A stretch of DNA of 44,291 nt from a virus, in IMG/VR virus record IMGVR_UViG_3300000976_000022, positions 1 to 44,291 of that record, one strand, 5' to 3'. This document shows positions 3,983 through 43,800 of the stretch, in pieces (within the stretch, counting starts at the first letter, position 1; every line of letters starts with the position of its first letter). Position numbers and translations under genes: made by a program. The notes beneath the pieces were generated by a model, which worked only from the letters and a program-made list of their open reading frames with translations, was not told the DNA's origin and made no database searches.

Positions 3983-4011
3983 TCGTTATCATAGGCTTAT
4001 TTTTTGGTCAA
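3983..4011 (-). promoter_or_regulatory. Candidate sigma70-type promoter for the HNH operon segment (TTGACC - 17 nt - TAACGA)
   Basis: It aligns in register with the promoters at 8172 and 12872. All three share the same 53-54 nt distance from the -35 box to the ATG and the same leader ending cttgtGGAGt before the start codon. Confidence 0.45.
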
Positions 4012-4015
4012 GACC
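4006..4015 (-). repeat. GGTCTTGACC motif, copy a (exact)
   Basis: Read directly. Its TTGACC doubles as the -35 box of the promoter above. Confidence 0.9.
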
Positions 4016-4016
4016 T

Positions 4017-4070
4017 AAAAATAGAAAAACCCCGGCTGCTAAATTACATCATTGTAATAAGGAGCCGGGG
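4017..4070 (-). terminator. Rho-independent terminator (long compound hairpin plus U-tract)
   Basis: On the minus strand the outer stem is CCCCGGCU / AGCCGGGG and the inner stem is AUUACA / UGUAAU. The hairpin is followed by UUUUUCUAUUUUU. Confidence 0.7.
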
Positions 4071-4135
4071 TTAATTTGGGGGCTTTCTAACTCAAATGAA
4101 TTAGAAAACTGAATGTGCAAACGTGAATGGATGCA
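4022..4135 (-). ncRNA. Candidate phage small RNA (~110 nt) bounded by its own promoter and terminator
   Basis: There is no ORF on either strand. A TTGACA-16-TATTAA promoter lies upstream and a terminator downstream. An internal hairpin is UUUCUAAUUCAuuUGAGUUAGAAA. AUUCA occurs three times at roughly 15-nt spacing. Confidence 0.4.
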
Positions 4136-4141
4136 ACACCC

Positions 4142-4169
4142 TTAATATATAATAATTTATGGTTGTCAA
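4142..4169 (-). promoter_or_regulatory. Candidate sigma70-type promoter (TTGACA - 16 nt - TATTAA)
   Basis: Read directly on the minus strand. The -35 hexamer is perfect. Confidence 0.5.
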
Positions 4170-4172
4170 GGT

Positions 4173-4225
4173 GAAAACCCCATTAAATCGAGAGAGTTCA
4201 AGCACATTGATCTAATAGGGTTTTC
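4173..4225. other. Extended bipartite inverted repeat (8 + 8 bp stems, 19-nt apical loop) in the 3' UTR of gene 4254..4703
   Basis: GAAAACCC (4173-4180) pairs with GGGTTTTC (4218-4225). ATTAAATC (4182-4189) pairs with GATCTAAT (4209-4216) at 7 of 8 positions. Confidence 0.6.
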
Positions 4226-4253
4226 GGGGCGCGTCTATTATCTAGCAGATAAA

Positions 4254-4703
4254 TTATGTAGGATCAACTAAAATATAATGTTCTTTAGGTACTAATAATG
4301 TACTTGATACATATACAAAATTACGCCCGGTTTCCTGTAATTTTATATGACCTAATGCAGCATCAATAATAAATAATCTTGCATAATCGTTATCATAAAC
4401 ATGTAAGAAATTGTAAAAATTAGCAGCCTTATTTACAAGCTTTGAAACATCTACTGCTGTTTCACTCCACCCCCTAGTATTAGGATCACGAAAGTTAAAA
4501 TTAAGTTTAGCACCGGGAATAGTTAAATCATGGCCTGTTTCAATGATAGGTGTTGCAGCAGCAGTACCAGCTATATCAACATCTTCTACATGTTCATTTT
4601 CTATAATATAGCTAATTACAGGTAGTAATACAAGATCATCAAAAGATTTACCTTTTGTGTTATCTGTAGCTTCTTTTAATTGTTCTTCATATTTGGTACG
4701 CAT
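4254..4703 (-). CDS. Hypothetical protein (149 aa) in its own transcription unit
   Basis: The ORF has an upstream TTGACA promoter and an AGGGGAA RBS. It is followed by a structured non-coding region. No motif recognised. Confidence 0.7.
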   Translation of the reverse strand: MRTKYEEQLKEATDNTKGKSFDDLVLLPVISYIIENEHVEDVDIAGTAAATPIIETGHDLTIPGAKLNFNFRDPNTRGWSETAVDVSKLVNKAANFYNFLHVYDNDYARLFIIDAALGHIKLQETGRNFVYVSSTLLVPKEHYILVDPT

Positions 4704-4742
4704 GGTTAAATTCCCCTATAAAATGCAATTTAATAAGGAAAT

Positions 4743-4770
4743 TAATTACCCAAAACTTAAACAGTGTCAA
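4743..4770 (-). promoter_or_regulatory. Candidate promoter (TTGACA - 16 nt - TAATTA)
   Basis: Read directly on the minus strand, 61 nt upstream of the ATG at 4703. Confidence 0.4.
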
Positions 4771-4824
4771 GGTATTATATAATGATAACGCCGGGCATAT
4801 TCATTACACATTATTATATCTATA

Positions 4825-5061
4825 TTATAATAATGATCCTTTTCCACACCTATCTGTTACACGTTGTTTTTCATCTAATAAACTCCAATTTAACAACGTT
4901 AAAGCCTTACCGCTAAGTTTAATATATTTACGCTTATATATGTAAATTAAATACTTAGGATTATGTTTTATTATATAACCTATCGTGTACCCTTTATACA
5001 TACCTTGCGGCATTATAAAACGTTCTTGATAAGATGTTAAACCAGACCATTTAGAGGCCAT
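4825..5061 (-). CDS. Hypothetical protein (78 aa), weak DUF3820-like pattern
   Basis: MPQGMYKGYTIGYIIKHNPKYLIYIY loosely resembles the FGKYKGKT...YL.W signature. The start overlaps the upstream small ORF. Confidence 0.5.
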   Translation of the reverse strand: MASKWSGLTSYQERFIMPQGMYKGYTIGYIIKHNPKYLIYIYKRKYIKLSGKALTLLNWSLLDEKQRVTDRCGKGSLL

Positions 5062-5227
5062 AAGAACGCGATTTCATACGGCTTTTATTACCCCTTTTTC
5101 TACGTTTCTTGATATTTGATTTTGTACCCGGTTTACACTTTGGCGGGCTAGGATCGTTCATATCCCATCTTAGATTACATGTAGAACAATACATTTCATC
5201 AATTTGTTGTCTAGCATTACAAGCCAT
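5051..5227 (-). CDS. Small Cys-containing basic protein (58 aa), below the ORF-track cutoff
   Basis: Manual translation gives MACNARQQIDEMYCSTCNLRWDMNDPSPPKCKPGTKSNIKKRRKRGNKSRMKSRSYGL. It fills the 5062-5239 gap, and its stop overlaps the next start. Confidence 0.45.
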   Translation of the reverse strand: MACNARQQIDEMYCSTCNLRWDMNDPSPPKCKPGTKSNIKKRRKRGNKSRMKSRSYGL

Positions 5228-5239
5228 ATTACCTAGTCC

Positions 5240-5512
5240 TTACATAAAGTTAGCTGGATCGTAATCACCATATAAAAGGCTAAACGAAACAGGCATTGAA
5301 AGCACCATTACCATTATATCATTATATTTATGTTTATTTGTAAAATCAACTGCTTGTTTGCCAAATAGATGTATAGCAAATTCACGGTTAATATGTATTT
5401 CTTTCGGTCTTGGATAACTAGCCGGGTTAGTGGCTGCTGAAAGTATTATTTCATAGCTTTCTAATCGTGTAGGCGGCTCTACAACAACTAAACCATTTAT
5501 AACATCACTCAT
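5240..5512 (-). CDS. Hypothetical protein (90 aa)
   Basis: The ORF shares nt 5512 with the upstream stop (ATGA-type coupling). Confidence 0.6.
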   Translation of the reverse strand: MSDVINGLVVVEPPTRLESYEIILSAATNPASYPRPKEIHINREFAIHLFGKQAVDFTNKHKYNDIMVMVLSMPVSFSLLYGDYDPANFM

Positions 5513-5742
5513 TATAAAACCTTACATTCTCTATCTTTTAATAGATTGTTTTTCACCATTCTTACGGTTGATGTAGAAGAACGATTAACACCCATGTACG
5601 TACTCATTTTAATACCATTTTTCATATAAATTAATTCAGCATGACCGCCATGTGATTTATAATCCAATTTTACATATTCATAACCCGGCATATGCTTGAA
5701 CATTCGTTTAAGATCACGTCTTAATTTACCTTGACCTGCCAT
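5512..5742 (-). CDS. Hypothetical protein (76 aa)
   Basis: The ORF sits in a coupled chain. SHGGHAELIY...STVRMVKNNL has only a faint HicA/YcfA-like pattern, too weak to call. Confidence 0.6.
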   Translation of the reverse strand: MAGQGKLRRDLKRMFKHMPGYEYVKLDYKSHGGHAELIYMKNGIKMSTYMGVNRSSTSTVRMVKNNLLKDRECKVL

Positions 5743-5748
5743 AAATAA

Positions 5749-5856
5749 CTATTCTTGAAGCTTAAAATATAACCATATTAATAAACTAGCTGTTAGAGCA
5801 ACGCAACCTATAATTACATTAATAGCTTTCCATTGTTCAAATGTAATATCAAGCAT
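5749..5856 (-). CDS. Small membrane peptide (35 aa)
   Basis: The internal ATG of track ORF 5749..5961 gives MLDITFEQWKAINVIIGCVALTASLLIWLYFKLQE. This start overlaps the stop of 5849..6073. The longer form would overlap that gene by more than 100 nt. Confidence 0.4.
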   Translation of the reverse strand: MLDITFEQWKAINVIIGCVALTASLLIWLYFKLQE

Positions 5857-6073
5857 TTTTAAACCTCTTACGCTCTTTACGTTCACACCACGCCTTAGCT
5901 TGTTTAAGTGTTCTAAAGGGGTTTGATTGATCCTTAACGTGCCATTCTGTAGGATCGCCATATTGAGCTATAAATTCATTGTTTTTATATACAATAAAAT
6001 AATCTTCATTTTGGCTAACCCATCCATCATTAGCACCATGAATAGACCATTGTAATAATCGCTTTTTAGTCAT
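5849..6073 (-). CDS. Hypothetical protein (74 aa)
   Basis: The ORF shares nt 6073 with the upstream stop. Confidence 0.6.
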   Translation of the reverse strand: MTKKRLLQWSIHGANDGWVSQNEDYFIVYKNNEFIAQYGDPTEWHVKDQSNPFRTLKQAKAWCERKERKRFKNA

Positions 6074-6267
6074 TATTTATCCTTAACTTTTTTAATAACT
6101 TCATCAATATCTAAATCAGGATCATATGATATATTAGTATATTCATATTCATTTTTAAATACTACAATATACCAATCACCATCAATAAAAAAATCCTTAA
6201 ATTCATAACCGGGTATTCCATTAATGCGTTTTTGTAGATTTAATTCATACTCTCTTAAAGAAGTCAC
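6073..6267 (-). CDS. Hypothetical protein (64 aa, GTG start)
   Basis: The ORF lies on the coding strand. The first codon read from the sequence is GTG. Confidence 0.5.
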   Translation of the reverse strand: MTSLREYELNLQKRINGIPGYEFKDFFIDGDWYIVVFKNEYEYTNISYDPDLDIDEVIKKVKDK

Positions 6268-6269
6268 TT

Positions 6270-6419
6270 CTATAACCTATTCTTAATTGATGATAATAGC
6301 AAACGTATTTCTTCACTCTTATCATACTGTAATTTTAGACGCCATATAATAACGCCTAATAAAACAGCTATGATTAAGCATTTAATCAACATACCGGGAT
6401 GCAATTGTACTTCAATCAT
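6270..6419 (-). CDS. Small membrane peptide (49 aa), below the ORF-track cutoff
   Basis: Manual translation gives MIEVQLHPGMLIKCLIIAVLLGVIIWRLKLQYDKSEEIRLLLSSIKNRL. It has an ATGA overlap with the upstream stop at 6416. Confidence 0.45.
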   Translation of the reverse strand: MIEVQLHPGMLIKCLIIAVLLGVIIWRLKLQYDKSEEIRLLLSSIKNRL

Positions 6420-6661
6420 TGTATTTTATTCTTAACACTATCTTCTTCATAAATAGCCTTAATATCATTATTGGTTTTATGGTTCTGATCCATCATTTCC
6501 TTATAGGTTATAATATCCGATCTGTATAAAGCAGTATAAAAACCCCTAAAATATATCTCATATTCAGTAGATGGTTTATTTGTATAGATTGTTAAGATAG
6601 CACTATCTTTATAAAGCGCTTCCATTCTATTCCATTTCTTATTAAACTTAAATGTAACCAT
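6416..6661 (-). CDS. Hypothetical protein (81 aa from the internal ATG)
   Basis: A start at MVTFKFNKKW lies 1 nt after the stop of 6663..6971. The longer track ORF would overlap that gene by 110 nt. Confidence 0.55.
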   Translation of the reverse strand: MVTFKFNKKWNRMEALYKDSAILTIYTNKPSTEYEIYFRGFYTALYRSDIITYKEMMDQNHKTNNDIKAIYEEDSVKNKIQ

Positions 6662-6662
6662 T

Positions 6663-6971
6663 TTAATACGTCCTATGTTCATTGTTTGGATCACCGCCAT
6701 TACGCTTATATAAATAAATTGCTTCACTATGGCAATCATCGCTACATGTATAACCACATCCATGATCTTCATAACTATTATCTGAATATTCTTTTAATTC
6801 CATTTGCCCACAATATGCACATTCGCCAAAATCGTTATATTCATTACGGCAATCTTTAGAACAATAGTTTCCACCGCCATAAGTAATAACTTCATCGGGG
6901 CTTTCATAACCTTCTTCAAGAAAGTTAATATCACAATTTTCACATACTAATGAATTACACATTTTTTTCAC
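6663..6971 (-). CDS. Cys-rich protein with two tandem CxxC-x(20-23)-CxxxC modules (TRASH/FCS-type zinc-binding pattern), 102 aa
   Basis: Module 1 is CENC...(23 aa)...CSKDC. Module 2 is CAYC...(20 aa)...CSDDC. Confidence 0.5.
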   Translation of the reverse strand: MKKMCNSLVCENCDINFLEEGYESPDEVITYGGGNYCSKDCRNEYNDFGECAYCGQMELKEYSDNSYEDHGCGYTCSDDCHSEAIYLYKRNGGDPNNEHRTY

Positions 6972-7016
6972 TTCACAATAAGTTATACGAACAACATATA
7001 TTAATGTATATAGTTG

Positions 7017-7262
7017 TCAAGTACTAATTCGTTTTAAAATTTCCTTTTTCGCACTATCTAATGATTTACATTTAATAGGTTTTAAAACAACTCTAACACC
7101 GCTTTTTTTAGTATGTATTAAAAAAGCAAAATAAATAGGGTCTTTATCATATTTAGCAATATTAGCTAAATGGGTTTCTTTATAATTTATACCCGTATTA
7201 ACACGTTTGTATAAATGCCAACCTTTAACACCTTCAGCTTCACTTTCGCACCAATATAACAT
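7017..7262 (-). CDS. Hypothetical protein (81 aa)
   Basis: ORF on the coding strand. No motif recognised. Confidence 0.6.
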   Translation of the reverse strand: MLYWCESEAEGVKGWHLYKRVNTGINYKETHLANIAKYDKDPIYFAFLIHTKKSGVRVVLKPIKCKSLDSAKKEILKRIST

Positions 7263-7275
7263 TGTAACAACCTCT

Positions 7276-7464
7276 TTAAGATTTAGCTTTACTGATCATA
7301 ACAAGATTATCAGAACGTGGATCAATACCACTTATTAAACCTGATTTTTTACATTTAGCAGGTATAAAAAAATCGTCAATTTTACCAGCCTGTACAACAA
7401 ACTTTTGTATTGATCCATCTGAATAACGTATTCCGATAGTGTCACCTAATCTAGCTTTAAACAT
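7276..7464 (-). CDS. Hypothetical protein (62 aa), first gene of the leftward early operon
   Basis: AAGGAAG RBS lies 8 nt upstream of the ATG, and a promoter sits about 30 nt further upstream. Confidence 0.65.
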   Translation of the reverse strand: MFKARLGDTIGIRYSDGSIQKFVVQAGKIDDFFIPAKCKKSGLISGIDPRSDNLVMISKAKS

Positions 7465-7498
7465 TTATCTAACTTCCTTAATAACGTTTTCTATAACT

Positions 7499-7528
7499 AT
7501 TATATGACATAATAAAACAACGTTGTAA
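7499..7528 (-). promoter_or_regulatory. Leftward early promoter candidate (TTACAA - 18 nt - TATAAT)
   Basis: Read directly on the minus strand. The -10 hexamer is perfect, and the promoter is correctly placed before the first leftward gene. Confidence 0.55.
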
Positions 7529-7570
7529 AGAACTATTTTCATTATTTTATAGATTATTTTTGATCTTTTC

Positions 7571-7850
7571 CCCGGATGGGGTGTACACTCATTCATATAT
7601 ATAGAACATTTTCAATAATGTAATTGACTATTAATTAGTCGATAATTTAAGCAATATTTCAAATATTCTATACATATTCATCACTTTTACTATCATTTCT
7701 AATCGTTTAAATGATATTCATAGCTAAGTCATTGATAACAAACGATTATTTATAGTTTAACCTACTAAATACATTATTATATGATAGTAGTTTACATTAT
7801 GGTACATGTTCTAACTATCCGGGTGAGTGTACCACCATTTCAATAATGTA
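7571..7850 (+). repeat. Two diverged direct copies of a ~35-bp element (7571-7622 and 7819-7850)
   Basis: Copy 1 is cccggatggggtgtacac...cattttcaataatgta. Copy 2 is tccgggtgagtgtaccac-catttcaataatgta. Copy 1 carries an ~18-bp insertion. Confidence 0.75.
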
Positions 7851-7934
7851 TACAGGCGTCAAATAAGAACGTCACGACTAAGCTATTGATTTTAAAGGAT
7901 TAATTATTTTATGACGTTTTTATACGCAAAATAA

Positions 7935-7966
7935 GCTGCATTATTTTTTAATAGCGCTGCATTATT
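7935..7966 (+). repeat. Direct repeat GCTGCATTATT x2, 21 bp apart centre to centre, with a third TGCATTATT at 8109-8117
   Basis: Read directly. The second copy abuts a TTGACG hexamer at 7971-7976. Confidence 0.8.
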
Positions 7967-8062
7967 GATCTTGACGTAACGTGTGGTTAAAATTTAATGC
8001 ATATAAAGATAACGTTATATTTATGTAAGAAAGTCATGTAATTGTTCATGGTAACTTATTTG

Positions 8063-8099
8063 ATGATAGAATTGATGAATATTTGAATGATAGAAATTG
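8063..8099 (+). repeat. Direct repeat ATGATAGAA(A)TTG x2, with related ATGATAGTA at 7781-7789 (+) and 7688-7696 (-)
   Basis: Read directly. Four copies of ATGATAG(A/T)A lie within about 410 bp of non-coding DNA. Confidence 0.75.
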
Positions 8100-8171
8100 C
8101 TAAAAATTTGCATTATTCTGTAATGTTTAGCACGACGATAACAAAAATGCAGGGAAGTTAAAAATTAGTGC

Positions 8172-8200
8172 TTGACAATCATATATCAGTCATTTACTTA
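8172..8200 (+). promoter_or_regulatory. Rightward early promoter candidate (TTGACA - 17 nt - TACTTA)
   Basis: The -35 hexamer is perfect. It has the same architecture and leader (cttgtGGAGt) as the promoters at 12872 and 4011. Confidence 0.5.
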
Positions 8201-8231
8201 GGCTCTAAATTATTCTTGTGGAGTAAAGAAA

Positions 8232-8411
8232 ATGGCATTAATTGAACGTACCGAATATCACGTTATAGAGGGTGAAGATGAATATGGTGAAGCTGTTGCA
8301 TGGTGTAATAGTTTACAAGAAGCCAAAGATAAAATATATACAAAATATGGTGAAGGTCATATAATATGTAAAGTTACATATTTTTGTAAAGAATATGAAG
8401 TTGTGAGTTAA
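8232..8411 (+). CDS. Small protein (59 aa), below the ORF-track cutoff; first rightward gene
   Basis: Manual translation gives MALIERTEYHVIEGEDEYGEAVAWCNSLQEAKDKIYTKYGEGHIICKVTYFCKEYEVVS. A GGAG RBS lies 9 nt upstream. Confidence 0.6.
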   Translation: MALIERTEYHVIEGEDEYGEAVAWCNSLQEAKDKIYTKYGEGHIICKVTYFCKEYEVVS

Positions 8412-8414
8412 AGT

Positions 8415-8612
8415 ATGTCATATGATTTTGATATTTCTGATTTGAATAGAATAACAACCATAATTAAAAATCATCCTACTATGGTAGGTATTGATTATCG
8501 TTTTAAAGATATTCAAATAAGAATAACAGATTGTTCTACCTTTAAAGTTGTTAATTCTTATGGTGAATTTATGACTGAAAAAGAAATGCGTAAAATTGAT
8601 AGTGAGGGTTAA
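8415..8612 (+). CDS. Hypothetical protein (65 aa)
   Basis: ORF packed tightly in the rightward operon. Confidence 0.6.
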   Translation: MSYDFDISDLNRITTIIKNHPTMVGIDYRFKDIQIRITDCSTFKVVNSYGEFMTEKEMRKIDSEG

Positions 8613-8840
8613 ATGGCAGTCAATTGGCCTTATAAAAAACTAAGTATAGAGACTGATAACGGTATGATGTTTATAATAAAATGTCAATTATCTAGTCTTT
8701 TTGTTCAAGATGGTAATAAAAAAGGATTACCTAAAAAATGGACAAATGAATTTAAACAATCTTGCTTATTTAATGAACATAATGCAGATAAACTTATAGG
8801 ACGTTTAGTTAAAGCTTATCCGAAAGCGGTAGATCAATGA
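8613..8840 (+). CDS. Hypothetical protein (75 aa)
   Basis: The start directly abuts the previous stop. Confidence 0.6.
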   Translation: MAVNWPYKKLSIETDNGMMFIIKCQLSSLFVQDGNKKGLPKKWTNEFKQSCLFNEHNADKLIGRLVKAYPKAVDQ

Positions 8841-9076
8841 TAGTTAAACGTATATCATCACGTACATTTAATGCGCGTGTAATGGATGTTGCTAAGCAGG
8901 TTCTTGTAAGAAAGAATGAACAAGACCCTAAAGAAAACAGTATATTAATATATAGTGTTGGATCAGAACCGCATGATTGGGAAATAGCTTTAACCTTTGA
9001 AGAAATAGAGGTATTGCACAATCAAATGCAATTAGCTAAAGCAGCTAAGACTAATCAACCAACTTGGAGTAATTAA
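8837..9076 (+). CDS. Hypothetical protein (79 aa)
   Basis: ATGA overlap with the previous stop. Confidence 0.6.
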   Translation: MIVKRISSRTFNARVMDVAKQVLVRKNEQDPKENSILIYSVGSEPHDWEIALTFEEIEVLHNQMQLAKAAKTNQPTWSN

Positions 9077-9077
9077 A

Positions 9078-9338
9078 ATGACTGAAACACCAGTTATTGA
9101 ATTATATGTTATGATTAATAGTAAAGGTCATTTTGCTATTAAAAACGGGACTATAACACATACAGGGGATAAAACCGATTTAACATTTATTAGTGATATA
9201 AATAAAGCTGATTTATTTACATTTAGAGGTATAAATGAAGCTATGAAATATAAAAATTATAAATCAGTTGTAGGTCATTTAAGAGCTTATGAAAACCGTG
9301 TTGTTGATTTGGCTAAAGATATTAGGAAAAAAGATTAA
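9078..9338 (+). CDS. Hypothetical protein (86 aa)
   Basis: ORF packed tightly in the rightward operon. Confidence 0.6.
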   Translation: MTETPVIELYVMINSKGHFAIKNGTITHTGDKTDLTFISDINKADLFTFRGINEAMKYKNYKSVVGHLRAYENRVVDLAKDIRKKD

Positions 9339-9532
9339 TGAAAACTACAATAAAAAATAAATACATAGATATTGAAACTGGTGATGAATATTATGGTTAC
9401 AATACCATTGATGAAGAAACTAATAGAGTATCGTATAGGTATGAACCCATTAAACCCCGGTCTAAGCTTCAGGGGTTAATGTGGGCATTATGCGCCATGC
9501 TGATAGGTTTTATGCTTGTATATTTAATCTAA
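9338..9532 (+). CDS. Hypothetical protein with a C-terminal TM helix (64 aa)
   Basis: TAATG overlap with the previous stop. The C-terminus LQGLMWALCAMLIGFMLVYLI is hydrophobic. Confidence 0.6.
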   Translation: MKTTIKNKYIDIETGDEYYGYNTIDEETNRVSYRYEPIKPRSKLQGLMWALCAMLIGFMLVYLI

Positions 9533-9575
9533 ATCAAATACATTACATTAAATATTCCATTTAAGGGTGAATATT

Positions 9576-9896
9576 ATGATTAAATCGTTATCAAATATTT
9601 TTATTTTATTAGGTTTTACTAGTATATTTATTGATTTTATATTGTATTGTTTACGTGGTTATGGCTACGATATAGCGGGATGGGGATGGTGTTTGCTTTT
9701 AATATCTTGTTGTTTAACAATAATTTCTAATTCTATAAAACCATTAAAAAAAATTAATTTATTTACTAGTATTTTCATGCTTTCATTTATAATATATTTA
9801 ATGTTTAAATATACTAATAGTCCAGAATACTTAAAGAACGATCCTTATGGCGTTAGTCAATATAATCTTTGTTATAATGAATTAAATATTTGCTAA
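9576..9896 (+). CDS. Multi-pass membrane protein (106 aa from the ATG at 9576)
   Basis: There are three to four hydrophobic segments. An AAGGGTG RBS lies 8 nt before the ATG at 9576, whereas the track start at 9567 is a GTG. Confidence 0.6.
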   Translation: MIKSLSNIFILLGFTSIFIDFILYCLRGYGYDIAGWGWCLLLISCCLTIISNSIKPLKKINLFTSIFMLSFIIYLMFKYTNSPEYLKNDPYGVSQYNLCYNELNIC

Positions 9897-10213: not shown

Positions 10214-10214
10214 A

Positions 10215-34834: not shown

Positions 34835-34836
34835 AA

Positions 34837-35373: not shown

Positions 35374-35378
35374 AAATT

Positions 35379-36164: not shown

Positions 36165-36183
36165 CTTTAGGTTCCTTACCTGT

Positions 36184-36209: not shown

Positions 36210-36234
36210 AAGTTTCACGCTAAATTGTAATTAC

Positions 36235-37239: not shown

Positions 37240-37267
37240 TTCAAGCTATCCTATTTTAAGCGTTTGT

Positions 37268-38011: not shown

Positions 38012-38046
38012 TTTTATAGTTTCCTTTTAGCGTTTTATACCCACAA

Positions 38047-39657
38047 TTAGGCTTTGTTATCGCCCTTTTTAGGGGCTGGTTTTTTGTCCTTTTTAGGATC
38101 AATTTTTTTATCATCATTATCAAAATTAGATGATTTAGCTTGCATTAAATCCATAGCTGCTTTTTGTTTATCTTCAAGCATTTTATCAATTTTAACTTTA
38201 GCTTCTTCATCATCTTCAATAGCTATACCCGCTTTACGTAATTTAAAACGTAATTCTTCCCATGTAATACCAGTTTTTTCATAAAGTTCTAACCATATGC
38301 GTATATCTTCAGCACTAATATTATTAACATCAAAATCAGTATTAATTACAAAAGCTTCAGAATTATTTTCACGGATTAAAGCCATATTCATAAAACGTGC
38401 ATGACGATTAATTATCTTAGCGTATGTTTCAGATACGTTTTTAGCTATAGTTGCTAATTCACTATTTTCAGAAACGTTATCATTTTTTGCTTCTGTTGCG
38501 GTACGTTGTACTTCACGATCTTCAACCATTTTAGCGCCAATAGCTTTAGCCTGTTTTTCCTTATGTTTCATGGCTTCAAAGATCATTGTATTTTCAGTTG
38601 CTTGAAGAAGCCCGGCTTGTGCGTTTTCAGGTAAAGGTACAGCCCGGCGTGAACCTAAAAGAACACGCCCTTTAAATACTTCTTTAACCCATGTTTCAGT
38701 TAATCCGCTATACCACGGCGTAGGTTGACCAAGAATAAAACAAGCTTCTTCATAATCAGCGCTATTATGATAATGTGCAAAATTAATATCAACCAAATCT
38801 TCAATAGGGGGTTTATTAGGTAAATGATTATTATCTTCAGCACCTATAATATCAAAAGGTATATGATCTAATATTTGACCATCTGCACCACTAATATAAT
38901 CAGGCCCGCTATATATTTCAAATTGGATATTATTACCTTTTCTGTAAACGGTTACTGAATATTGCCAAGCATCGTTTAATTCTAATACAACCCATTCGTT
39001 TTCTAATTTGAGTTCAAAACCATCATCTTCAGATACATATTTTCTTACAAAAACAACCTTACTTAATACTGATTTTGCACCGCGTTTAGTTATACGCCAA
39101 TTTATAAAATGTTTAGCTTTAATTAATGTTGTAACGGCTCTTATTTCACCACTTTCATTATCAGCTTTAGATACTTCTTTAACTTTACCTTCTTCATCTG
39201 TAACTTTAGGGTAATCAGTCCATAAGCATACGCGACCATCACGAATAACACGATTAGAAGCTTGTTTAGATTGTTGAATAATACCCGAAGCTTGACCATC
39301 AATATCAAAATTTAAATAGTCAAGCACTTCAGGAAATTCTTCATCTTGTGCTGGATTGCGTAAAAATAATTGCCCCTCTAAACCCTTAACAGTATTACCA
39401 GCTAAATTATAAAATAAAGCCCTTTGTTTATATGCTTTATAACGTTTAGTAGCGTCTTCTTTTTCGCCGGGTGTCATATCAACAGTAATAGGCGTAGGAT
39501 GGGGTAAGTATTCTTCACCCTTACTTTTAACTTGTGTTTGACCTAATAAACAATCATCAATTCTTTCATAAATAGGGCGTAAACGTTCAACTTCTTTACG
39601 CACATAATCAACTTGCGGGCCTGAAGTATTTCCATCTGTTGTAACTACTGTGGGCAT
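38047..39657 (-). CDS. Portal protein (536 aa)
   Basis: It lies immediately downstream of the large terminase, sharing nucleotide 39657. It is a typical size and has a K/D-rich C-terminal tail. Confidence 0.75.
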   Translation of the reverse strand: MPTVVTTDGNTSGPQVDYVRKEVERLRPIYERIDDCLLGQTQVKSKGEEYLPHPTPITVDMTPGEKEDATKRYKAYKQRALFYNLAGNTVKGLEGQLFLRNPAQDEEFPEVLDYLNFDIDGQASGIIQQSKQASNRVIRDGRVCLWTDYPKVTDEEGKVKEVSKADNESGEIRAVTTLIKAKHFINWRITKRGAKSVLSKVVFVRKYVSEDDGFELKLENEWVVLELNDAWQYSVTVYRKGNNIQFEIYSGPDYISGADGQILDHIPFDIIGAEDNNHLPNKPPIEDLVDINFAHYHNSADYEEACFILGQPTPWYSGLTETWVKEVFKGRVLLGSRRAVPLPENAQAGLLQATENTMIFEAMKHKEKQAKAIGAKMVEDREVQRTATEAKNDNVSENSELATIAKNVSETYAKIINRHARFMNMALIRENNSEAFVINTDFDVNNISAEDIRIWLELYEKTGITWEELRFKLRKAGIAIEDDEEAKVKIDKMLEDKQKAAMDLMQAKSSNFDNDDKKIDPKKDKKPAPKKGDNKA

Positions 39658-41303
39658 TATCTAAACCATTCCATTATTAAAGGTGCTTTTGGTAATCTTG
39701 TTCCATCCATTAAGATCATATATCTTATCATATCGTAAATATGGTCTTCTTGGTCTGTATCAACATCTTGTGGATTAGTATCATCACGTGCCATAGTTGG
39801 CAAGACTTCAATAGTAGCTTGGCAATTATCCATAACATAAAAACCCCGCCCTTCATGCTCTAAGCTTGCCTGAAGACGATCCCGTAATAATTGAAGCCCT
39901 ACTTCACGTGAACCTTTAGACTTATCAGAAGCTATAAAATCAATACCATGATCTGACATAGTTTTAGCTAAGGTATCAACCCCCTGTTGAAGCATTTGCG
40001 TTATTTGATTATCTGCTGGCCCGGCGTAAGGTTCTTTCTTAATCCATCCAAACATTTTTAAAGCACGTTCTATTTTACCCATACCTAAAGAAACATCTTT
40101 AGCTGATAATTTTAAACCCTTATTTGATCCTATTTCTTTAGTACCATACCATTCAGCTAATTGTATTATTGATCCTGCTTGTGGTGTCCATTTAGCACCC
40201 CCACGTAATTCAACTTCTTCACCGTTAGCTATAGTGAATAAACCATATGAAAAAGGATGGGTAGAACCCCAATCAAAAGCACGATATACAGGCCAATTTT
40301 CAGGTACTTTAAAACGTGGTATTACATGGCAATCACGTTTCCATAAATCATCTAACGCCCCACCCGCCATTACATCCCATGAACCTAATAACCAAGCTGC
40401 ACGTAAATTAGGGTCTTTAATAGAATTAAGTTGTGCAACGTATTTAGGATCAAGATAAGGGTTTTCTTTATACGATCCGAATATAGCAATTTGCGTTAAT
40501 TCTATTTCTTCTTCTTGTCTGGTTTGTGGATTAAATATAGTTTGTTTACGTTTAACCATAACACCACTTGGCGCTACATTAATAAAACGTCTTTTAACCC
40601 AATTATGGCCCGGCCCTGAAGGGTTAGTTGTAGAAAATACTTCTAACGGTATAGACGGTAAGGGTTTTCCATTTGCAGTTAAATATTTAACTGATCCATC
40701 TTCATTAATTACAAATTCACCAGTTGTAGTAGTAGCTTTAGGCGTATGTTCTTCTTGTTTAAATGATGAACGATTAGTAGACAAAAGCTTATCATGTAAA
40801 TCAGGGTTAGGATGTTTAGTTAATTCATTAAAACCTATAAATGGGTATTCGTGACCATGAAAATTTTCATAATGATCTAATGTTTTAGCATGACGTAAAA
40901 GCAATTCTTCACCAGTAGGCCAAACAAACTTATATTCACTATGGCTACTTAAAAATTTACAACCATCATCAAAAGACAATAAAAAACGCTTACCTTGTGC
41001 AACAATATCATTAAGGTTTTTAAATTCACGATCAAATATAACACCGCGCCAGAATGAACCATAACCTTTGCCCACATTTCTACGAAAGCGCATTATTTGT
41101 GTTATAGTTTTACCCGGCCCCCTAGCACCATGATAAAGGGTATATTGCGCCCGCGTATCTAAAGCATAAGCTTGTGATGAATTAGGTATAGGTTTAAATA
41201 CAACTTTTGAAGGTTCTATTTCATCCGGGTTAGGCGGTGTAAATAAAGGGCTTTCAACAGCACTATCTATTTTAAGATCAGCTAAATCAAATAATAATGA
41301 CAT
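39657..41303 (-). CDS. terL: Terminase large subunit (548 aa)
   Basis: Walker A is YHGARGPGKT and Walker B is YPFIGFNELT. A C-terminal nuclease-type domain is present, and the portal gene lies directly downstream. Confidence 0.85.
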   Translation of the reverse strand: MSLLFDLADLKIDSAVESPLFTPPNPDEIEPSKVVFKPIPNSSQAYALDTRAQYTLYHGARGPGKTITQIMRFRRNVGKGYGSFWRGVIFDREFKNLNDIVAQGKRFLLSFDDGCKFLSSHSEYKFVWPTGEELLLRHAKTLDHYENFHGHEYPFIGFNELTKHPNPDLHDKLLSTNRSSFKQEEHTPKATTTTGEFVINEDGSVKYLTANGKPLPSIPLEVFSTTNPSGPGHNWVKRRFINVAPSGVMVKRKQTIFNPQTRQEEEIELTQIAIFGSYKENPYLDPKYVAQLNSIKDPNLRAAWLLGSWDVMAGGALDDLWKRDCHVIPRFKVPENWPVYRAFDWGSTHPFSYGLFTIANGEEVELRGGAKWTPQAGSIIQLAEWYGTKEIGSNKGLKLSAKDVSLGMGKIERALKMFGWIKKEPYAGPADNQITQMLQQGVDTLAKTMSDHGIDFIASDKSKGSREVGLQLLRDRLQASLEHEGRGFYVMDNCQATIEVLPTMARDDTNPQDVDTDQEDHIYDMIRYMILMDGTRLPKAPLIMEWFR

Positions 41304-41306
41304 AGG

Positions 41307-41831
41307 CTAAAGCCCGCCATTTCTTAACCTTTTCTGTTGCGCTTCTAAACCTGCTGCATGTTGTTCATTTGTACCAAAATCTTGTACTAATAGCACTTTT
41401 GATTGATCTACATATTGGTTATTATTTTGCGTGACAGAATTATCATTTATATTATTTATTATTTTAGTTTTACTTGATCCCTTACCTTCTAAGAAACCAC
41501 GTATTTTAGCATAATCCATTAATGCTTTACGTTTTACATCATGGTCAAAAGCTGTACGGGATAATTGATATAAATCTTGTGCTGTTTCTTCAGCAGTAGG
41601 TAAAAAATAATCATGCCCGAAAGTATCAATTAATTCTTTTCTTAATGTTATTATTTTTTGTGAAGTAGGCCATTCCATACTTACTTCTAATTGTTTTTCA
41701 TCATTATCAGGATAAAGCATTTTTGCTAATTCCATTGATGAATACTTACCCGATAGCATACCAGCCGCAAAATTGCGTTGTAGATCAAGTTCTACTTCAT
41801 CAATATCTTCTATTACAGCAAATCCAGTCAT
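41307..41831 (-). CDS. Terminase small subunit candidate (174 aa)
   Basis: Positional call only: it lies directly upstream of terL. Confidence 0.4.
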   Translation of the reverse strand: MTGFAVIEDIDEVELDLQRNFAAGMLSGKYSSMELAKMLYPDNDEKQLEVSMEWPTSQKIITLRKELIDTFGHDYFLPTAEETAQDLYQLSRTAFDHDVKRKALMDYAKIRGFLEGKGSSKTKIINNINDNSVTQNNNQYVDQSKVLLVQDFGTNEQHAAGLEAQQKRLRNGGL

Positions 41832-41837
41832 TGTTTA

Positions 41838-42191
41838 TTATTTTTCTACTATATCAAAGAAACCTGCTTTATACCAAGTTGTTTCATTTTTATCTGTAAC
41901 ATAAAATGAACGTCTTGCAAACACATATAGTTTTAATTTGTTACCTTCTAAATCTTTACCCTTAATAATTGTATCAGTTTTAGAAGGGCATAGGTTTTCA
42001 TAATCTTTTGTTTTATTTGGACAAAATAAAGGAATATAATTATCAATATTTTTACCTAATAAAGAACCTTTCATTATACGATCTGCTTTAGGGCTGCTAA
42101 TGATAACTATATTATTATTATCAATAGCTATAAAAGGCGCTGTAGCTAAAACATAAGCTTCAATAAAAGGTAAATCTTGAAGGTTAAACAT
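41838..42191 (-). CDS. Hypothetical protein (117 aa)
   Basis: ORF between the lysis cassette and the terminase genes. No motif recognised. Confidence 0.6.
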   Translation of the reverse strand: MFNLQDLPFIEAYVLATAPFIAIDNNNIVIISSPKADRIMKGSLLGKNIDNYIPLFCPNKTKDYENLCPSKTDTIIKGKDLEGNKLKLYVFARRSFYVTDKNETTWYKAGFFDIVEK

Positions 42192-42195
42192 TAGT

Positions 42196-42471
42196 TTATT
42201 CTCCTAACGCCAAATCTAAACGTTTCTTTTTAAATGCTCGCCATTCTTCTAATTCCATTCTTACGTTTTCCATCTCTTTTCTAAGGGCTTCTGCTTCAGT
42301 CTTAAATTTAGCTGTTTCAACTTCAGCATTTTTAACCATATTAGCAACCTTACCAGTTACTATAAAACCCATATGATATAACCATGATGCAATAGCAAAA
42401 CCTAATATTACACCACCCCATGAATAAGGATTTGAACCTATTTCAATTAGTATTTCAGTAAAACTAGCCAT
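42196..42471 (-). CDS. Membrane-anchored coiled-coil protein (91 aa); i-spanin-like or holin/antiholin-like
   Basis: A single TM segment, WGGVILGFAIASWLYHMGFIV, is followed by a charged helical tail (KFKTEAEALRKEMENVRMELEEWRAFKKK). Confidence 0.45.
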   Translation of the reverse strand: MASFTEILIEIGSNPYSWGGVILGFAIASWLYHMGFIVTGKVANMVKNAEVETAKFKTEAEALRKEMENVRMELEEWRAFKKKRLDLALGE

Positions 42472-42475
42472 AACT

Positions 42476-42718
42476 TTATTCTTCTAAACAGATGTTATTA
42501 CAATAACAATTAGCTTTAGCGTTATGAATAACTATTTCACGGCGCGTTTCTATAGTATCTTTTCTTGAATATGAAATTTGTTTTAAAAGACCACTTTCAC
42601 AAACTTTATTATGATTTTTAGTCTCTAAGGTTTGGGTCTTGGTCGTCTGGCAACCCGTCAAGATCATCAAAGTGCTTACCAGCAACAACGCCCGATTTAA
42701 TAGCCTTATCTGTTTCAT
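42476..42718 (-). CDS. Lipoprotein (80 aa from the ATG at 42718); o-spanin-like
   Basis: MKQIRLLNRALLLVSTLMILTGC has a signal peptide with the lipobox L-T-G-C. An AAAGGG RBS lies upstream. Its 5' part overlaps the preceding ORF out of frame. Confidence 0.6.
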   Translation of the reverse strand: MKQIRLLNRALLLVSTLMILTGCQTTKTQTLETKNHNKVCESGLLKQISYSRKDTIETRREIVIHNAKANCYCNNICLEE

Positions 42719-42851
42719 CTGAAGCCCTTTCAAGACTATCTATAATAATTTTAGCAGCCCCGGCTTCCATCATTCTTTTATCACGCATGTAACCAGCAAT
42801 AGAAGATAGCAGTTGTAGGGCGAGTTTAAAAGTTTTAAGCCCGCCCAACAT
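42618..42851 (-). CDS. Hypothetical lysis-cassette protein (77 aa) overlapped at its 3' end by the lipoprotein gene
   Basis: The ATG lies 2 nt after the stop of the holin-like ORF. The N-terminus is amphipathic and the tail acidic. Confidence 0.5.
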   Translation of the reverse strand: MLGGLKTFKLALQLLSSIAGYMRDKRMMEAGAAKIIIDSLERASDETDKAIKSGVVAGKHFDDLDGLPDDQDPNLRD

Positions 42852-42853
42852 TA

Positions 42854-43021
42854 TTAACTACCTGTATCAGTTTTAATACCACTACGTAAAAACGCACCAG
42901 TAAGCAAAGTGAAAACAGTCTGTAGTGTTTGGCCTAGTTCTACATCACCGCTTAAATAAGCGCCAACAGCAGTAACAATACCAACAACAACAGTAATATA
43001 AGTTTTTTTACCTTGTAGCAT
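42854..43021 (-). CDS. Holin-like small membrane protein (55 aa), below the ORF-track cutoff
   Basis: Manual translation gives MLQGKKTYITVVVGIVTAVGAYLSGDVELGQTLQTVFTLLTGAFLRSGIKTDTGS, with two hydrophobic segments. An AAGGA RBS is present. It lies directly after the endolysin gene. Confidence 0.45.
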   Translation of the reverse strand: MLQGKKTYITVVVGIVTAVGAYLSGDVELGQTLQTVFTLLTGAFLRSGIKTDTGS

Positions 43022-43032
43022 GATAACAATCC

Positions 43033-43800
43033 TTATCTTTCATTGCTTGATAATTTTGGTCTTGACCGAATAATAGGTAAACTATCAAAGCCTATTGTAT
43101 TCGGGATTTTTGCAGATTTCGGATAACGAAACGCTACAAATCTTTTTACCTCAAAAGAGGCTTCAGAAACTTTATTTTTTTGATTACCGCCAATACCAAC
43201 TATATTTCCATCTTCATCGCGCCCGGTAATAAATATAACGTGACCTTTACCGTTACCCGGATTACCCCTAGATAATACACCTATAGCGCCTAAACACGGT
43301 TCATTTATATCAACACCATAACTATCATAAGAACGCGCCCTTGCTGATCTGGTAGAAGATATACCACATTCTTCTAATACACTACCCACAAAAGCAGCAC
43401 ACCACGGCGTTTCATCATCTGCAAACCAAGGGCTAAATATACGGGCAAACATATTAACTATTAAAGGATTGTGTTTTGATCCTGCTATTTCAGAAGCCCC
43501 TATATAGGTAGAAGCTACACGTAACCATACAGGTATGTTAGAACGTGTATATAGTCCATCTGATCCGTTTTTTAACTTAACAACCATCTTACGTTCAATA
43601 TTATCTTTGAACAAAGCAGCAAGGGTAAGCGGGCCTAAATACGGTCTAGCTTTATAACCAATAGACTTTTTAAATTTGATAATAGCCTTCTTGGTATTAG
43701 GGCCATTGATACCATCAATAACACCTTTGTAAAAACCTTTAGAGCTTAAAGCCTTTTGTATCTGTATCATGTTGTATGCCATAGGTTGCAATATGCACAT
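43033..43800 (-). CDS. Endolysin: peptidoglycan-binding domain plus TIGR02594/CHAP-NlpC-P60-like peptidase (255 aa; start uncertain among M1/M7/M11)
   Basis: IQKALSSKGFYKGVIDGINGPNTKKAI has the PG_binding_1 pattern. DETPWCAAFV ... KGHVIFI ... GGNQKNKV gives the Cys, His and GGNQ signature. Confidence 0.7.
   Translation of the reverse strand: MCILQPMAYNMIQIQKALSSKGFYKGVIDGINGPNTKKAIIKFKKSIGYKARPYLGPLTLAALFKDNIERKMVVKLKNGSDGLYTRSNIPVWLRVASTYIGASEIAGSKHNPLIVNMFARIFSPWFADDETPWCAAFVGSVLEECGISSTRSARARSYDSYGVDINEPCLGAIGVLSRGNPGNGKGHVIFITGRDEDGNIVGIGGNQKNKVSEASFEVKRFVAFRYPKSAKIPNTIGFDSLPIIRSRPKLSSNER
43058..43067 (+). repeat. GGTCTTGACC motif, copy d (exact)
   Basis: Read directly as attttGGTCTTGACCGAATAAT. 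It lies antisense inside the 3' end of the endolysin gene. Confidence 0.9.

Follow-up and report, generated by a model that had tools for sequence, protein, structure and literature searches.

The question raised by this locus is what reads a short GC-rich palindrome that recurs around the genome of an uncultured phage. The window, meaning the whole stretch of 44,291 nucleotides that was analysed, is a circular ~44.2-kb siphovirus contig. The core 10-mer, written as GGTCTTGACC or GGTCAAGACC depending on the strand, is present in four exact copies, at 4006-4015(-), 31952-31961(+), 35364-35373(-) and 43058-43067(+), and in one copy with a single mismatch (GGTCTTGTCC, 21208-21217(-)). The claim in a preliminary description that this number exceeds chance was borne out: none of 100 dinucleotide-preserving shuffles contains any exact copy, and when up to one mismatch is allowed, six matches are observed against 0.52 expected. 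The sixth match, GGTTTTGACC at 17151-17160(+), had been overlooked in that description, but its list of five copies stands, as this match lies in the helicase gene, is coding-conserved in all relatives, lacks the motif flanks and is not counted. The motif is strongly over-represented relative to chance in every genome examined.

The complete element spans ~22 bp and reads AATTn-GGTC-(TT/AA)-GACC-nAATT. It is extended to this length because the flanking positions are self-complementary, positions ±2 to ±5 being so in 67-87% of 15 sites compared with ~27% at random positions; the flank conservation described earlier is thereby upheld. The central dinucleotide is always TT or AA, with AT and TA never found. 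A T(-1)/G(+1) asymmetry is linked to the TT strand, resulting in a wobble pair on that strand only. The copies, an adjoining terminator and two weaker candidates are as follows.

4000..4021, minus strand: site A, core GGTCTTGACC at 4015-4006, with AT-rich self-complementary flanks.
4030..4070, minus strand: intrinsic terminator hairpin (CCCCGGCT...AGCCGGGG), identified from sequence and MFE fold.
21202..21223, minus strand: site B, core GGTCTTGTCC (one mismatch) at 21217-21208.
31946..31967, plus strand: site C, core 31952-31961, antisense in the tail-assembly-chaperone frameshift extension, in the window genome only.
35358..35379, minus strand: site D, core 35373-35364, intergenic between a 261-aa gene and the head-tail adaptor gene.
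43052..43073, plus strand: site E, core 43058-43067, antisense in the last ~12 endolysin codons, ~37 nt before the next gene start.
16371..16392, plus strand: possible weak site H, GGACATGGCC with motif-like flanks in the helicase gene.
29535..29556, plus strand: possible degenerate site T, GGACAAGGCC in the tape-measure gene.

Non-coding DNA makes up 5.8% of the genome and holds three of the five copies; the contexts given previously (three copies at gene boundaries, two antisense in late genes) are all as described. Site A starts right after the T-run (4029-4016) of the terminator, with the start of an HNH gene 53 nt downstream. Site B occupies the 19 nt that separate the stop of the DNA-polymerase gene, after frameshift correction (21199-21201), from the tail-fibre stop (21221-21223), and begins 3 nt past the latter. 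Site D is found 5 nt past the 261-aa gene's stop (35379-35381), and the adaptor gene starts 20 nt beyond the site (35343). With respect to the weaker candidates, site H has a PWM score of 17.8 against a background of at most 9, and two related genomes keep GGTCATGGCC there, which could be mere coding conservation; site T scores 9.1, with syntenic near-motifs GGACTAGACC and GGACAAGACT in those two relatives (R1 and R2, respectively).

The comparison set consisted of the window genome (W), three related genomes (R1, R2 and R3) and one fragment (L331). The preliminary description had proposed looking for conservation at syntenic positions, and R1 and R2 indeed keep the same motif at syntenic places. 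Four loci recur between genomes: A and a further locus, J1, both directly behind intrinsic terminators; B in a convergent gap; and D at a head/connector gene boundary. At A and J1, the motif adjoins the terminator T-run in all five intact cases as well as in the L331 variant, and in W the J1 terminator and motif have been lost together. Site A has exact syntenic counterparts in R1 (7423) and R2 (32214), and the L331 copy carries a 5-nt duplication. In the alignment of this locus, only the T-run, the motif and a Shine-Dalgarno box are conserved. The terminators in R1, R2 and L331 have the same layout with different stem sequences, and the gene that follows occupies a variable slot (HNH, C5-methyltransferase or Cys-rich ORF). 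Terminator stem and flanks have diverged past blastn alignment while the 10-mer is intact, a pattern that points to purifying selection on the motif. Site B likewise has exact syntenic copies in R1 (23132) and R2 (6205), with AGGCAAGCCT at the same place in R3 (15933), so that the 17-19-nt convergent gap of the DNA-polymerase and late operons is filled in all four genomes. Several distant relatives carry a canonical terminator at this spot, directly 3' of the DNA-polymerase gene.

The remaining copies show how the element is gained and altered. At syntenic site D, the centre is flipped to AA in gene sense in R1, and R2 has a 3-nt centre, GGTCTTTGACC; together with the 7-nt centre of L331 site A, this is a case of intact arms around an altered spacer. 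Alignment of site C with R1, R2 and R3 reveals equal length and no indel, and the substitutions that made the motif include an amino-acid change. At the orthologous position of site E, again with no indel, R2 has GGATAAGTCT and R1 has GGACTAGACC. Copies C and E were therefore created within coding sequence by point substitutions that also changed amino acids, which argues for selection for the sites and not for insertion of a mobile element. A mobile miniature palindromic element (REP/MITE-like) was rejected since occupied and empty orthologous sites are equal in length. The REP/BIME elements of enterobacteria are lineage-specific imperfect palindromes found at operon 3' ends and convergent junctions in both orientations; they are 35-40 nt long, chromosomal, present in hundreds of copies and spread by RAYT transposases. 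In contrast, some copies in this phage are intragenic, copies come from point substitution, and no transposase is present.

In W, R1 and R2, which share ~65-80% nucleotide identity, the arms are identical in all copies, within and between genomes. The more distant R3 has no GGTC/GACC-type copy, yet it carries five exact copies of AGGC-(TT/AA)-GCCT, in which pairs 1-10 and 3-8 are swapped compensatorily relative to W and the C-WW-G centre is retained. Of these copies, one occupies the syntenic position of site B, and three others are found within ~130-470 bp of where C, D and E lie in W. Arms that are the same within a genome and switched together in R3 fit co-evolution of the site with a specific reader and do not fit a generic hairpin. 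As the sister lineage has the same layout with other arms, the ~22-bp site, in about five copies mostly at transcription-unit ends, is probably the target of a sequence-specific factor.

The reading that is tentatively preferred, although held with less than even confidence, is that the motif is operator-like and bound by a dimeric DNA-binding protein, which would form a barrier or insulator at transcription-unit ends. Among the four options of the preliminary description, an operator and a protein-dependent barrier are favoured by the dyad symmetry, the identical arms, their joint switch and the placement at terminators and convergent junctions, and the promoter option is disfavoured. An operator of a dimeric HTH regulator is expected to be a two-fold symmetric site of ~14-22 bp with conserved half-sites; in keeping with this, the arms of the motif are invariant within a lineage and its flanks are symmetric in composition. 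The TT strand is co-directional with the transcript ending there at A, J1 and B in all genomes, and it runs antisense at C and E, at site D of R1 and at three of the R3 sites. With about half of the copies antisense to local genes, and with the TT/AA flip at syntenic D, the data point to orientation-tolerant recognition of the duplex. In the proposed mechanism, a dimeric sequence-specific protein, probably phage-encoded, would bind the dyad-symmetric site and act as an orientation-tolerant RNA polymerase barrier or insulator. This barrier would be placed right behind leaky intrinsic terminators (site A, and J1 in relatives), in the 17-19-nt gap, devoid of a terminator, that separates the converging replication and late operons (site B), and at a few positions within the long late operon (E, D and C). 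Several observations count against this reading. Four of the five R3 sites are well within genes and not at unit ends, and none of the copies coincides with a recognisable promoter region. The altered spacers with intact arms (R2 site D, L331 site A) would be tolerated better by a hairpin than by a dimer, and there is modest base-pair covariation in the flanks beyond composition, with 7-11 of 500 shuffles reaching the observed values. The T(-1)/G(+1) asymmetry, with its wobble pair on one strand, also counts against this reading.

The sole recognisable candidate for a sequence-specific DNA-binding protein is a small product of the primase operon, whose link to the motif we infer.

12583..12780, minus strand: XRE-type helix-turn-helix protein of 65 aa, first gene of the primase operon.

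This protein matches PHROG 9425 ('transcriptional repressor', E 3.6e-4) and gives weak PDB sequence matches to XRE/SinR. Its AlphaFold model has a pLDDT of 84, and Foldseek (probability ~1.0, TM 0.65-0.68) matches the fold to SinR, DdrO, AcrIIA15-NTD and C-proteins. XRE-type HTH proteins bind compact palindromes as dimers. Orthologues are present in R1 and R3, so W, R1 and R3 share a conserved gene; the W and R1 proteins differ in their putative recognition helix, though both genomes carry the same motif. No motif copy lies near the protein's own gene, and another perfect palindrome, ACAAATTGATTTGT, is located 19 nt upstream of its start. The preliminary description had named a phage HTH protein and ParB-like proteins as possible binders. 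The former has a counterpart in this small protein; for the latter, no ParB/KorB domain was found in any scanned ORF (Pfam, PHROG) or in the relatives' precomputed Pfam lists, which rules against a ParB/KorB-type parS or OB site.

Dispersed operators that stop elongation or silence at a distance have precedents in the L5 stoperators (PMC9283540) and the KorB OB sites (PMC11790492). In the stoperators of cluster A mycobacteriophages (L5, Bxb1, TipsytheTRex), bound repressor halts transcription elongation, and from one sublineage to another the sequence of the site evolves in step with the specificity of the repressor (PMC9283540; PMC6550527). The element studied here resembles them in being a short lineage-specific site in dispersed copies, largely in short intergenic gaps. 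However, stoperators are 13-bp, asymmetric, monomer-bound sites, strictly oriented with transcription and present in more than 20 copies per genome, whereas this motif is palindromic, mixed in the orientation of its TT strand and limited to 4-5 copies, so that a strict stoperator type was rejected. Moreover, stoperator phages are temperate with a known immunity repressor, and neither an integrase nor an immunity repressor was seen in this phage. The conserved inverted repeats (CIRs) of phiC31 are reportedly bound by the c-gene repressor (Ingham et al. 1994; Wilson et al. 1995) and are 17 bp long, with ~18 copies concentrated in the early region of a temperate phage. Like the present motif, the CIRs are highly conserved palindromes repeated in intergenic regions round a siphovirus genome, often beside terminators or promoters. 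The KorB OB site (TTTAGCGGCTAAA) of the IncP-1 plasmid RK2 is dispersed over a ~60-kb replicon and read by a dimeric global regulator (PMC11790492). It shares with the present motif a palindrome with an AT-rich outer and a GC-rich inner part, and some copies that are promoter-distant or intragenic. KorB is nevertheless a ParB-family CTP-dependent sliding clamp working with KorA, a family with no detected member in this phage.

A rather unlikely alternative, though the strongest of the remaining ones, is that the motif acts as a single-stranded hairpin (RNA, ssDNA or cruciform), with a GGUC/GACC stem, additional AU pairs, a UU loop and a CUUG context. Such a hairpin would be read by a sequence-specific RNA- or hairpin-binding factor or nuclease in 3'-end formation, processing, mRNA stability or translational control of the next gene. 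In most sites the motif folds into the apex of a hairpin, and its TT strand gives the more stable fold at 11 of 15 sites and is never clearly weaker; at A, J1 and B, that strand runs with the transcript that stops there, in all genomes. Flank complementarity amounts to 4.5 of 8 positions against 2.2 expected, and pairing and covariation go beyond column shuffles (reached in 0/500 when the helix is taken as a whole and in 7-11/500 when only the flanks are), but much of the whole-helix signal stems from one clade-level event. The compensatory arm changes in R3 and the spacer-length variants with intact arms also suit a hairpin. On the other hand, independent hairpins would drift, and the arms are identical in every copy of three diverged genomes; moreover, some conserved sites carry arm variants that are uncompensated (GGAC at W site B, R1 site E, sites T and H). 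Any plausible transcript would read approximately half of the copies in antisense, sense-orientation folds at C and E reach just -1.9 and -2.5 kcal/mol, and copies behind terminators would rarely be transcribed. Furthermore, no U-tract follows the stem, and an Rfam search gave no match. The lambda-type nut boxB is an identical short stem-loop repeated in a phage that varies between relatives along with its cognate protein. It works in sense RNA only, just downstream of early promoters and in two copies, unlike the present motif, which is mixed in orientation and sited at unit ends.

It is quite improbable that the motif serves as an initiation or loading site for the phage NrS-1-type primase-polymerase/helicase (791 aa), with the GC palindrome amid AT-rich, easily melted flanks forming a minimal bidirectional start in several copies. 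Homology to the NrS-1 prim-pol extends over the N-terminal 270 aa, comprising Prim/Pol and the helix-bundle domain (29% identity, E 5e-27). The NrS-1 enzyme requires a template sequence of 8 nt, which is unusually long and is rare in the NrS-1 genome (PMC7102993). This sequence is given as TTTGGTTA (PMC8718748) and is similar to the TTTGGTC found at the motif's left edge. The loose tie of the sites to genes, their strand polarity (TT, T/G) and the AT-rich flanks would also fit. However, the likeness extends to just 6 of 8 bases in AT-rich DNA, and a short GTG(A/G) is enough for priming (PMC8718748). W and R3 differ in their motif arms, yet their helix-bundle domains are well conserved, as is that of a Paracoccus phage without the motif. 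In addition, the reported NrS-1 site lies within an iteron cluster beside the prim-pol gene, while the iteron- and inverted-repeat-rich non-coding region of the window (7465-8231) contains no motif.

A site-specific nicking or cutting target, producing fixed virion-DNA nicks or recombination-seeding breaks, is very unlikely. This reading would explain sites at mosaic module boundaries, in that W/R1/R2 nucleotide homology ends at B and begins at J1 and a variable gene slot follows A; module boundaries are operon ends anyway, and site D is inside an uninterrupted homology block. The non-palindromic TT/AA centre with its ±1 polarity could define one strand, and the phage encodes an HNH endonuclease, a PDDEXK/RusA-like nuclease, a Cas4-like exonuclease and a Sak4-like ATPase. 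Nevertheless, the HNH gene, next to site A in W, is absent from the motif-bearing R1 and R2, and half-sites elsewhere in the genome are not avoided.

The least credible reading takes the copies as sigma-70-type promoters (middle, late or antisense), as the preliminary description had suggested from TTGACC as a -35 box: this hexamer fits the consensus at 5/6 positions, a genuine promoter in the same phage reads TTGAC(C/G/T)-N16/17-TAnnnT, site D reads TTGACC-16-AATAAT and site A is placed where transcription might restart past a terminator, but an acceptable -10 (16-18 bp from the -35) exists at site D only, with none at a fixed distance or conserved among orthologous copies of A, B and J1, the orientation at syntenic D is reversed in R1, transcription started at B, J1, C and E would head into antisense DNA, the R3 version is TTGCCT, and promoter-like matches in the window are not above shuffles.

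Intrinsic (Rho-independent) terminators have a GC-rich stem of at least 5 bp, a 3-8-nt loop and a U-tract directly after it. The motif stem is 4 bp long (up to 8-9 with AU pairs), with fold energies of -2 to -8 kcal/mol. This candidate was rejected, as a terminator scan called none of the five copies and the sequence after the stem is A-rich, not T-rich. The genuine terminators in the window look unlike the motif.

The dispersed motif reported in the preliminary description is confirmed. Exact matches to the 10-mer GGTCTTGACC (reverse complement GGTCAAGACC) stand at four positions in the window, far above chance as had been claimed: none of 100 dinucleotide-preserving shuffles contained any copy. 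The fifth copy, described as carrying one mismatch, reads GGTCTTGTCC, and matches with at most one mismatch total six, compared with 0.52 expected. The remaining match, at 17151(+) (GGTTTTGACC) in the interior of the helicase gene, is not counted as a copy because it shows coding conservation in all relatives, without the motif flanks. The copies are designated as follows:

4006, minus strand: site A, exact
21208, minus strand: site B, one mismatch
31952, plus strand: site C, exact
35364, minus strand: site D, exact
43058, plus strand: site E, exact

The flanks had also been said to be conserved, and this holds: positions ±2 to ±5 consist of A and T only and complement each other in 67-87% of sites, compared with about 27% for random positions. 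Consequently, the element is about 22 bp long, with the form AATTn-GGTC-WW-GACC-nAATT. Two length variants in relatives apart (listed below), the centre between the arms is TT or AA only, and the strands are named after it. The gene contexts described for the copies, three at gene boundaries and two inside late coding regions, are correct, and three of the five lie within the non-coding 5.8% of the genome (binomial P ~0.002 by our own calculation). Searching the literature for the 10-mer brought up nothing beyond primers and similar entries, and avoidance of half-sites was tested and is absent. The 46-nt similarity between D and E that extends past the motif was discounted, since coding sequence explains it best; GCCTATTG represents the first adaptor codons in D and endolysin codons in E. 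A different 8-bp palindrome, AAAGCTTT, occupies 11 window positions (e.g. 754, 12549, 29162, 32048) against 2.95 expected, a number reached in 0 of 100 shuffles, and the related contig R3 has 13; this excess may be driven by codon usage.

The first 49 nt of the window (1-49) recur as its last 49 (44243-44291); this terminal duplication shows that the contig is circular, with a length of 44,242 bp. It is a siphovirus genome of 32% GC, the phage appears lytic, and neither tRNAs nor Rfam matches were found. The DUF7303 gene (228 aa) spans the circle junction (43875..319). The genes are organized in four blocks:

7464 through 1/44242 to 21221, leftward: long block with early, then lysis, terminase, portal, head and tail genes
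8232-9896, rightward: short early block
12828-9893, leftward: primase operon
12872-21201, rightward: replication operon

Megablast of the window against INPHARED phages gave no match, and a near cultured relative is absent. The closest cultured phages by protein are siphoviruses of Proteobacteria of about 42 kb: TerL is 61.6% identical to that of Paracoccus phage vB_PmaS-R3, and the best portal matches (41-44% identity) belong to several phages, among them those of Stenotrophomonas and Pseudomonas and the Paracoccus phage itself. Scanning IMG/VR with the portal protein alone yielded no relative. Related contigs were found via portal, DNA-polymerase and PDDEXK homologues:

R1: SRR27418475_2836, 42,624 bp, complete and circular, portal identity 84%; copies A 7423, J1 (a further recurrent locus) 12070, B 23132, D 35939, and a degenerate E (GGACTAGACC)
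R2: SRR18245250_1264, 43,605 bp, 2,185 nt missing, portal identity 75%; copies A 32214, J1 38757, B 6205, D 19483 (3-nt centre, GGTCAAAGACC)
R3: JGI Ga0209187_1001064, 36,005 bp, 3.9 kb missing, portal identity 59%; no GGTC..GACC copy, five exact copies of AGGC(AA/TT)GCCT
L331: ENA fragment, 4.8 kb, portal identity not given; copy A with a 5-nt duplication (GGTCTTGTCTTGACC)

A check at syntenic positions showed that A, B and D are kept in R1 and R2, and the per-genome motif counts exceed every shuffle. In R3, one copy occupies the syntenic B position, one lies in the AAA_24 gene, and three lie about 130-470 bp from the window positions of C, D and E. Compared with GGTC/GACC, the arms in R3 differ at pairs 1-10 (G-C to A-T) and 3-8 (T-A to G-C) but retain the C-WW-G centre and, in the flanks, T(-2)/A(+2). 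Two near-copies with motif-like flanks, GGACATGGCC at 16377-16386 in the helicase gene and GGACAAGGCC at 29541-29550 in the tape-measure gene, also keep their position in R1 and R2; these could be weak sites, or coding conservation alone could account for them.

The motif is not family-wide. An IMG/VR scan with the 14-mer ATTTGGTCTTGACC gave single matches only, apparently random, and 80 IMG/VR loci with DNA polymerases 41-48% identical, together with Paracoccus phage vB_PmaS-R3, contain no equivalent motif; what look like repeats in these are promoter-like boxes or tandem repeats within coding sequence. For the polymerase tail LDDEIPF*, a degenerate DNA pattern matched more than 120 contigs because it fits the common SSB-type acidic tail, and none of these contigs has the motif. 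The distant IMG/VR relative L168 carries GTGTTGTACAAC...TGTACAAT three times (6988, 11758, 13258), once directly after the DNA-polymerase gene, and similar TTGTAC...GTTGTACAAT boxes stand behind the polymerase gene in L170, L174, L192, L193 and L195; boxes of this type look like lineage-specific promoters. The motif is a sharp clade marker for this phage, as well as a defined bait for its reading factor.

The recurrent loci share a clear architecture. At A and J1, a strong intrinsic terminator precedes the motif, which begins 0-2 nt past the T-run in each of the five intact cases as well as in the L331 variant; its TT strand is co-directional with the incoming transcript. The terminator stems vary in sequence among genomes, and the alignable parts of locus A are limited to the T-run, the 10-mer and a downstream Shine-Dalgarno box (TGTGGAGT). 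In the window, both the motif and the terminator of J1 are gone. In each of the four genomes, site B fills the 17-19 nt that separate the stop codons of the DNA-polymerase gene and the last late gene, with no terminator on either side; several distant relatives have a canonical terminator at exactly this position. Site D lies between a 261-aa head-region gene and the adaptor gene in the window, R1 and R2, and its centre in gene sense is TT, AA and TTT, respectively.

Several features surround these loci. Upstream of A, the 300-nt non-coding gap 3953-4253(-) holds a strong promoter-like TTGACA (4169-4164)-N17-TATTAA, followed by a transcript region of about 110 nt that ends in the terminator 4070-4030. 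This layout is common to R1, R2 and L331 and has no Rfam match; the transcript could be a small RNA or an attenuator leader. The gene slot directly after A is variable (window 3593-3952; L329 9325-10000; L331 610-1530; L123 ~1600-1770): the window has an HNH endonuclease here, R2 a small Cys-rich ORF, and L331 and R1 a C5 DNA methyltransferase, intact (306 aa) in L331 and split between two 100-aa ORFs in R1; every variant is preceded by the conserved Shine-Dalgarno box. Next to B (21104-21204 region), the window DNA-polymerase ORF stops at 21139, 22 codons short of R1 and R2. Owing to a 1-nt shift in the A-run 21109-21114, the conserved tail SLGFQV..FDLDDEIPF* (stop 21199-21201), which mimics the SSB acidic C-terminal tip, lies in a different frame; the shift may reflect a sequencing error, a genuine mutation or programmed slippage. 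On the other side, no nucleotide homology links the tail-fibre module 21226-24015 (423-aa and 440-aa genes) to R1, R2 or R3, where three shorter genes stand instead, and the replacement starts exactly at site B. At D, TTGACCT (right arm and flank) can pair with AGGTCAA across the stop region of the 261-aa gene (35373-35395(-)), which yields an alternative stem of 7 bp closing a 12-nt loop; this is the MFE structure predicted, at about -7 kcal/mol.

Copies C and E are found only in the window, in coding DNA. Aligned to their "empty" orthologues, they have the same length and several substitutions, amino-acid changes among them, which indicates that copies arise by point mutation under selection and not by insertion. 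A mobile element is thus ruled out.

The main rival to recognition of the duplex is a hairpin. The motif does fold at the apex, with the TT strand favoured, the T(-1)/G(+1) asymmetry allows a wobble pair on the TT strand only, and the arms are intact in two spacer-length variants. Flank cells are paired in 64.7% of cases against 56.8 ± 3.5 (matched by 11 of 500 column shuffles) and the covariation score is matched by 7 of 500, a modest excess over column composition of a kind that related sequences can give without any structure. However, the GGTC/GACC arms do not vary, either within a genome or from one to another of three diverged genomes, all R3 sites switched arms together, conserved sites tolerate uncompensated GGAC variants, the copies lie in mixed orientation to transcription, and the flank consensus is symmetric. 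Duplex recognition is preferred because arm invariance weighs more.

Among the roles offered in the preliminary description, operator and protein-dependent barrier are favoured and promoter is rejected, with nick or packaging sites as a further candidate role. That a dimeric protein uses the palindrome as operator or barrier is a reading we place somewhat below even probability. Such a protein would block or stall RNA polymerase escaping the A and J1 terminators, and at B it would do so from both sides. The pairs insulated would be the early unit and the middle and late genes, the rightward early unit and the converging primase operon, and the replication and late operons; copies E, D and C, inside the late operon, might grade or time expression. 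A broader and rather unlikely proposal is that the lytic lineage has its own minimal boundary-element system, in which one small protein and a 22-bp palindrome back up or replace terminators (including at the terminator-less 17-nt convergent junction) and partition the compact genome into transcription domains. Between sister lineages, protein and site would have shifted specificity as a unit from GGTC to AGGC, and sites would have been lost and made anew through point mutation at approximately the same genomic stations.

Dispersed operator systems are known chiefly from a few temperate phages and plasmids. The motif is best classed as a variant of this type and not as a member of any of the three families compared here, since it fails on the defining features of each. 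The proposed mode is like that of the CIR operators of phiC31. It is also like that of the stoperators of cluster A mycobacteriophages (PMC9283540) and the KorB OB sites of RK2 (PMC11790492). If true, the system would differ from known dispersed operators in that the phage is apparently lytic, uncultured and low in GC, and in that the palindromic site is coupled to terminators and convergent junctions; it would show how a compact phage genome can keep converging operons insulated where a classical terminator is lacking. The cleanly switched arms of R3 would represent a natural experiment in the joint specificity change of a DNA element and the factor that recognizes it.

In Pfam and PHROG scans covering about 45 ORFs, no ParB, recombinase or integrase turned up, and the only HTH was a 65-aa XRE-type protein encoded by the first gene of the primase operon (PHROG 9425, E 3.6e-4), the sole DNA-binding candidate reader. 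XRE-class proteins bind compact palindromes as dimers, and controller-protein C-boxes have the form GACT-N3-AGTC. The AlphaFold model (pLDDT 84) matches SinR, DdrO, the AcrIIA15 N-terminal domain and R-M controller proteins with a Foldseek probability of ~1.0, and the protein is conserved in R1 and R3. Against this candidate, there is no motif copy near its gene, a different perfect 14-bp palindrome (ACAAATTGATTTGT, 12799-12812) lies 19 nt upstream of its start, and the putative recognition helix is unlike between the window and R1. The 14-bp palindrome, ACAA-N6-TTGT, resembles the phage 434 operator, is not conserved in R1, and may be the protein's own operator. The HNH gene next to A is absent from R1 and R2. 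A 293-aa "topoisomerase" PHROG protein was rejected as reader, having no Pfam or PDB match and being absent from R2. A structure model of a 79-aa conserved early protein gave no meaningful fold match.

A possible alternative reader is the 791-aa primase (10215-12590, minus strand), a prim-pol of the type found in the deep-sea vent phage NrS-1 (N-terminal 270 aa, 29% identity, E 5e-27). It is considered because the NrS-1 enzyme depends on a long recognition sequence in the template (PMC7102993; PMC8718748). However, the helix-bundle domain of the 791-aa protein is well preserved between the window and R3 despite the different arms, and the reported NrS-1 site lies in an iteron cluster, unlike the present motif. 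A separate family-B-like DNA polymerase and a processivity factor are also encoded.

The promoter reading, suggested by the TTGACC within the motif, does not hold: no -10 element stands at a fixed distance, none is conserved among orthologues, orientation flips at D, and promoter-like matches are not above shuffles. A true phage promoter, TTGACC-N16/17-TAnnnT, lies at 12868-12905 and is conserved in R1 and R3. A canonical terminator is rejected on the short stem, the absence of a U-tract after it and the weak folding, and a serine-recombinase crossover site was dropped, the recombinase gene being absent.

The largest non-coding stretch, 7465-8231, separates the divergent early blocks and contains no motif copy. 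It holds a 49-nt inverted repeat (7583-7631 / 7784-7832), the direct repeat GCTGCATTATT and other repeats, and the cumulative GC-skew minimum falls there. This stretch is likely the origin or an early control region.
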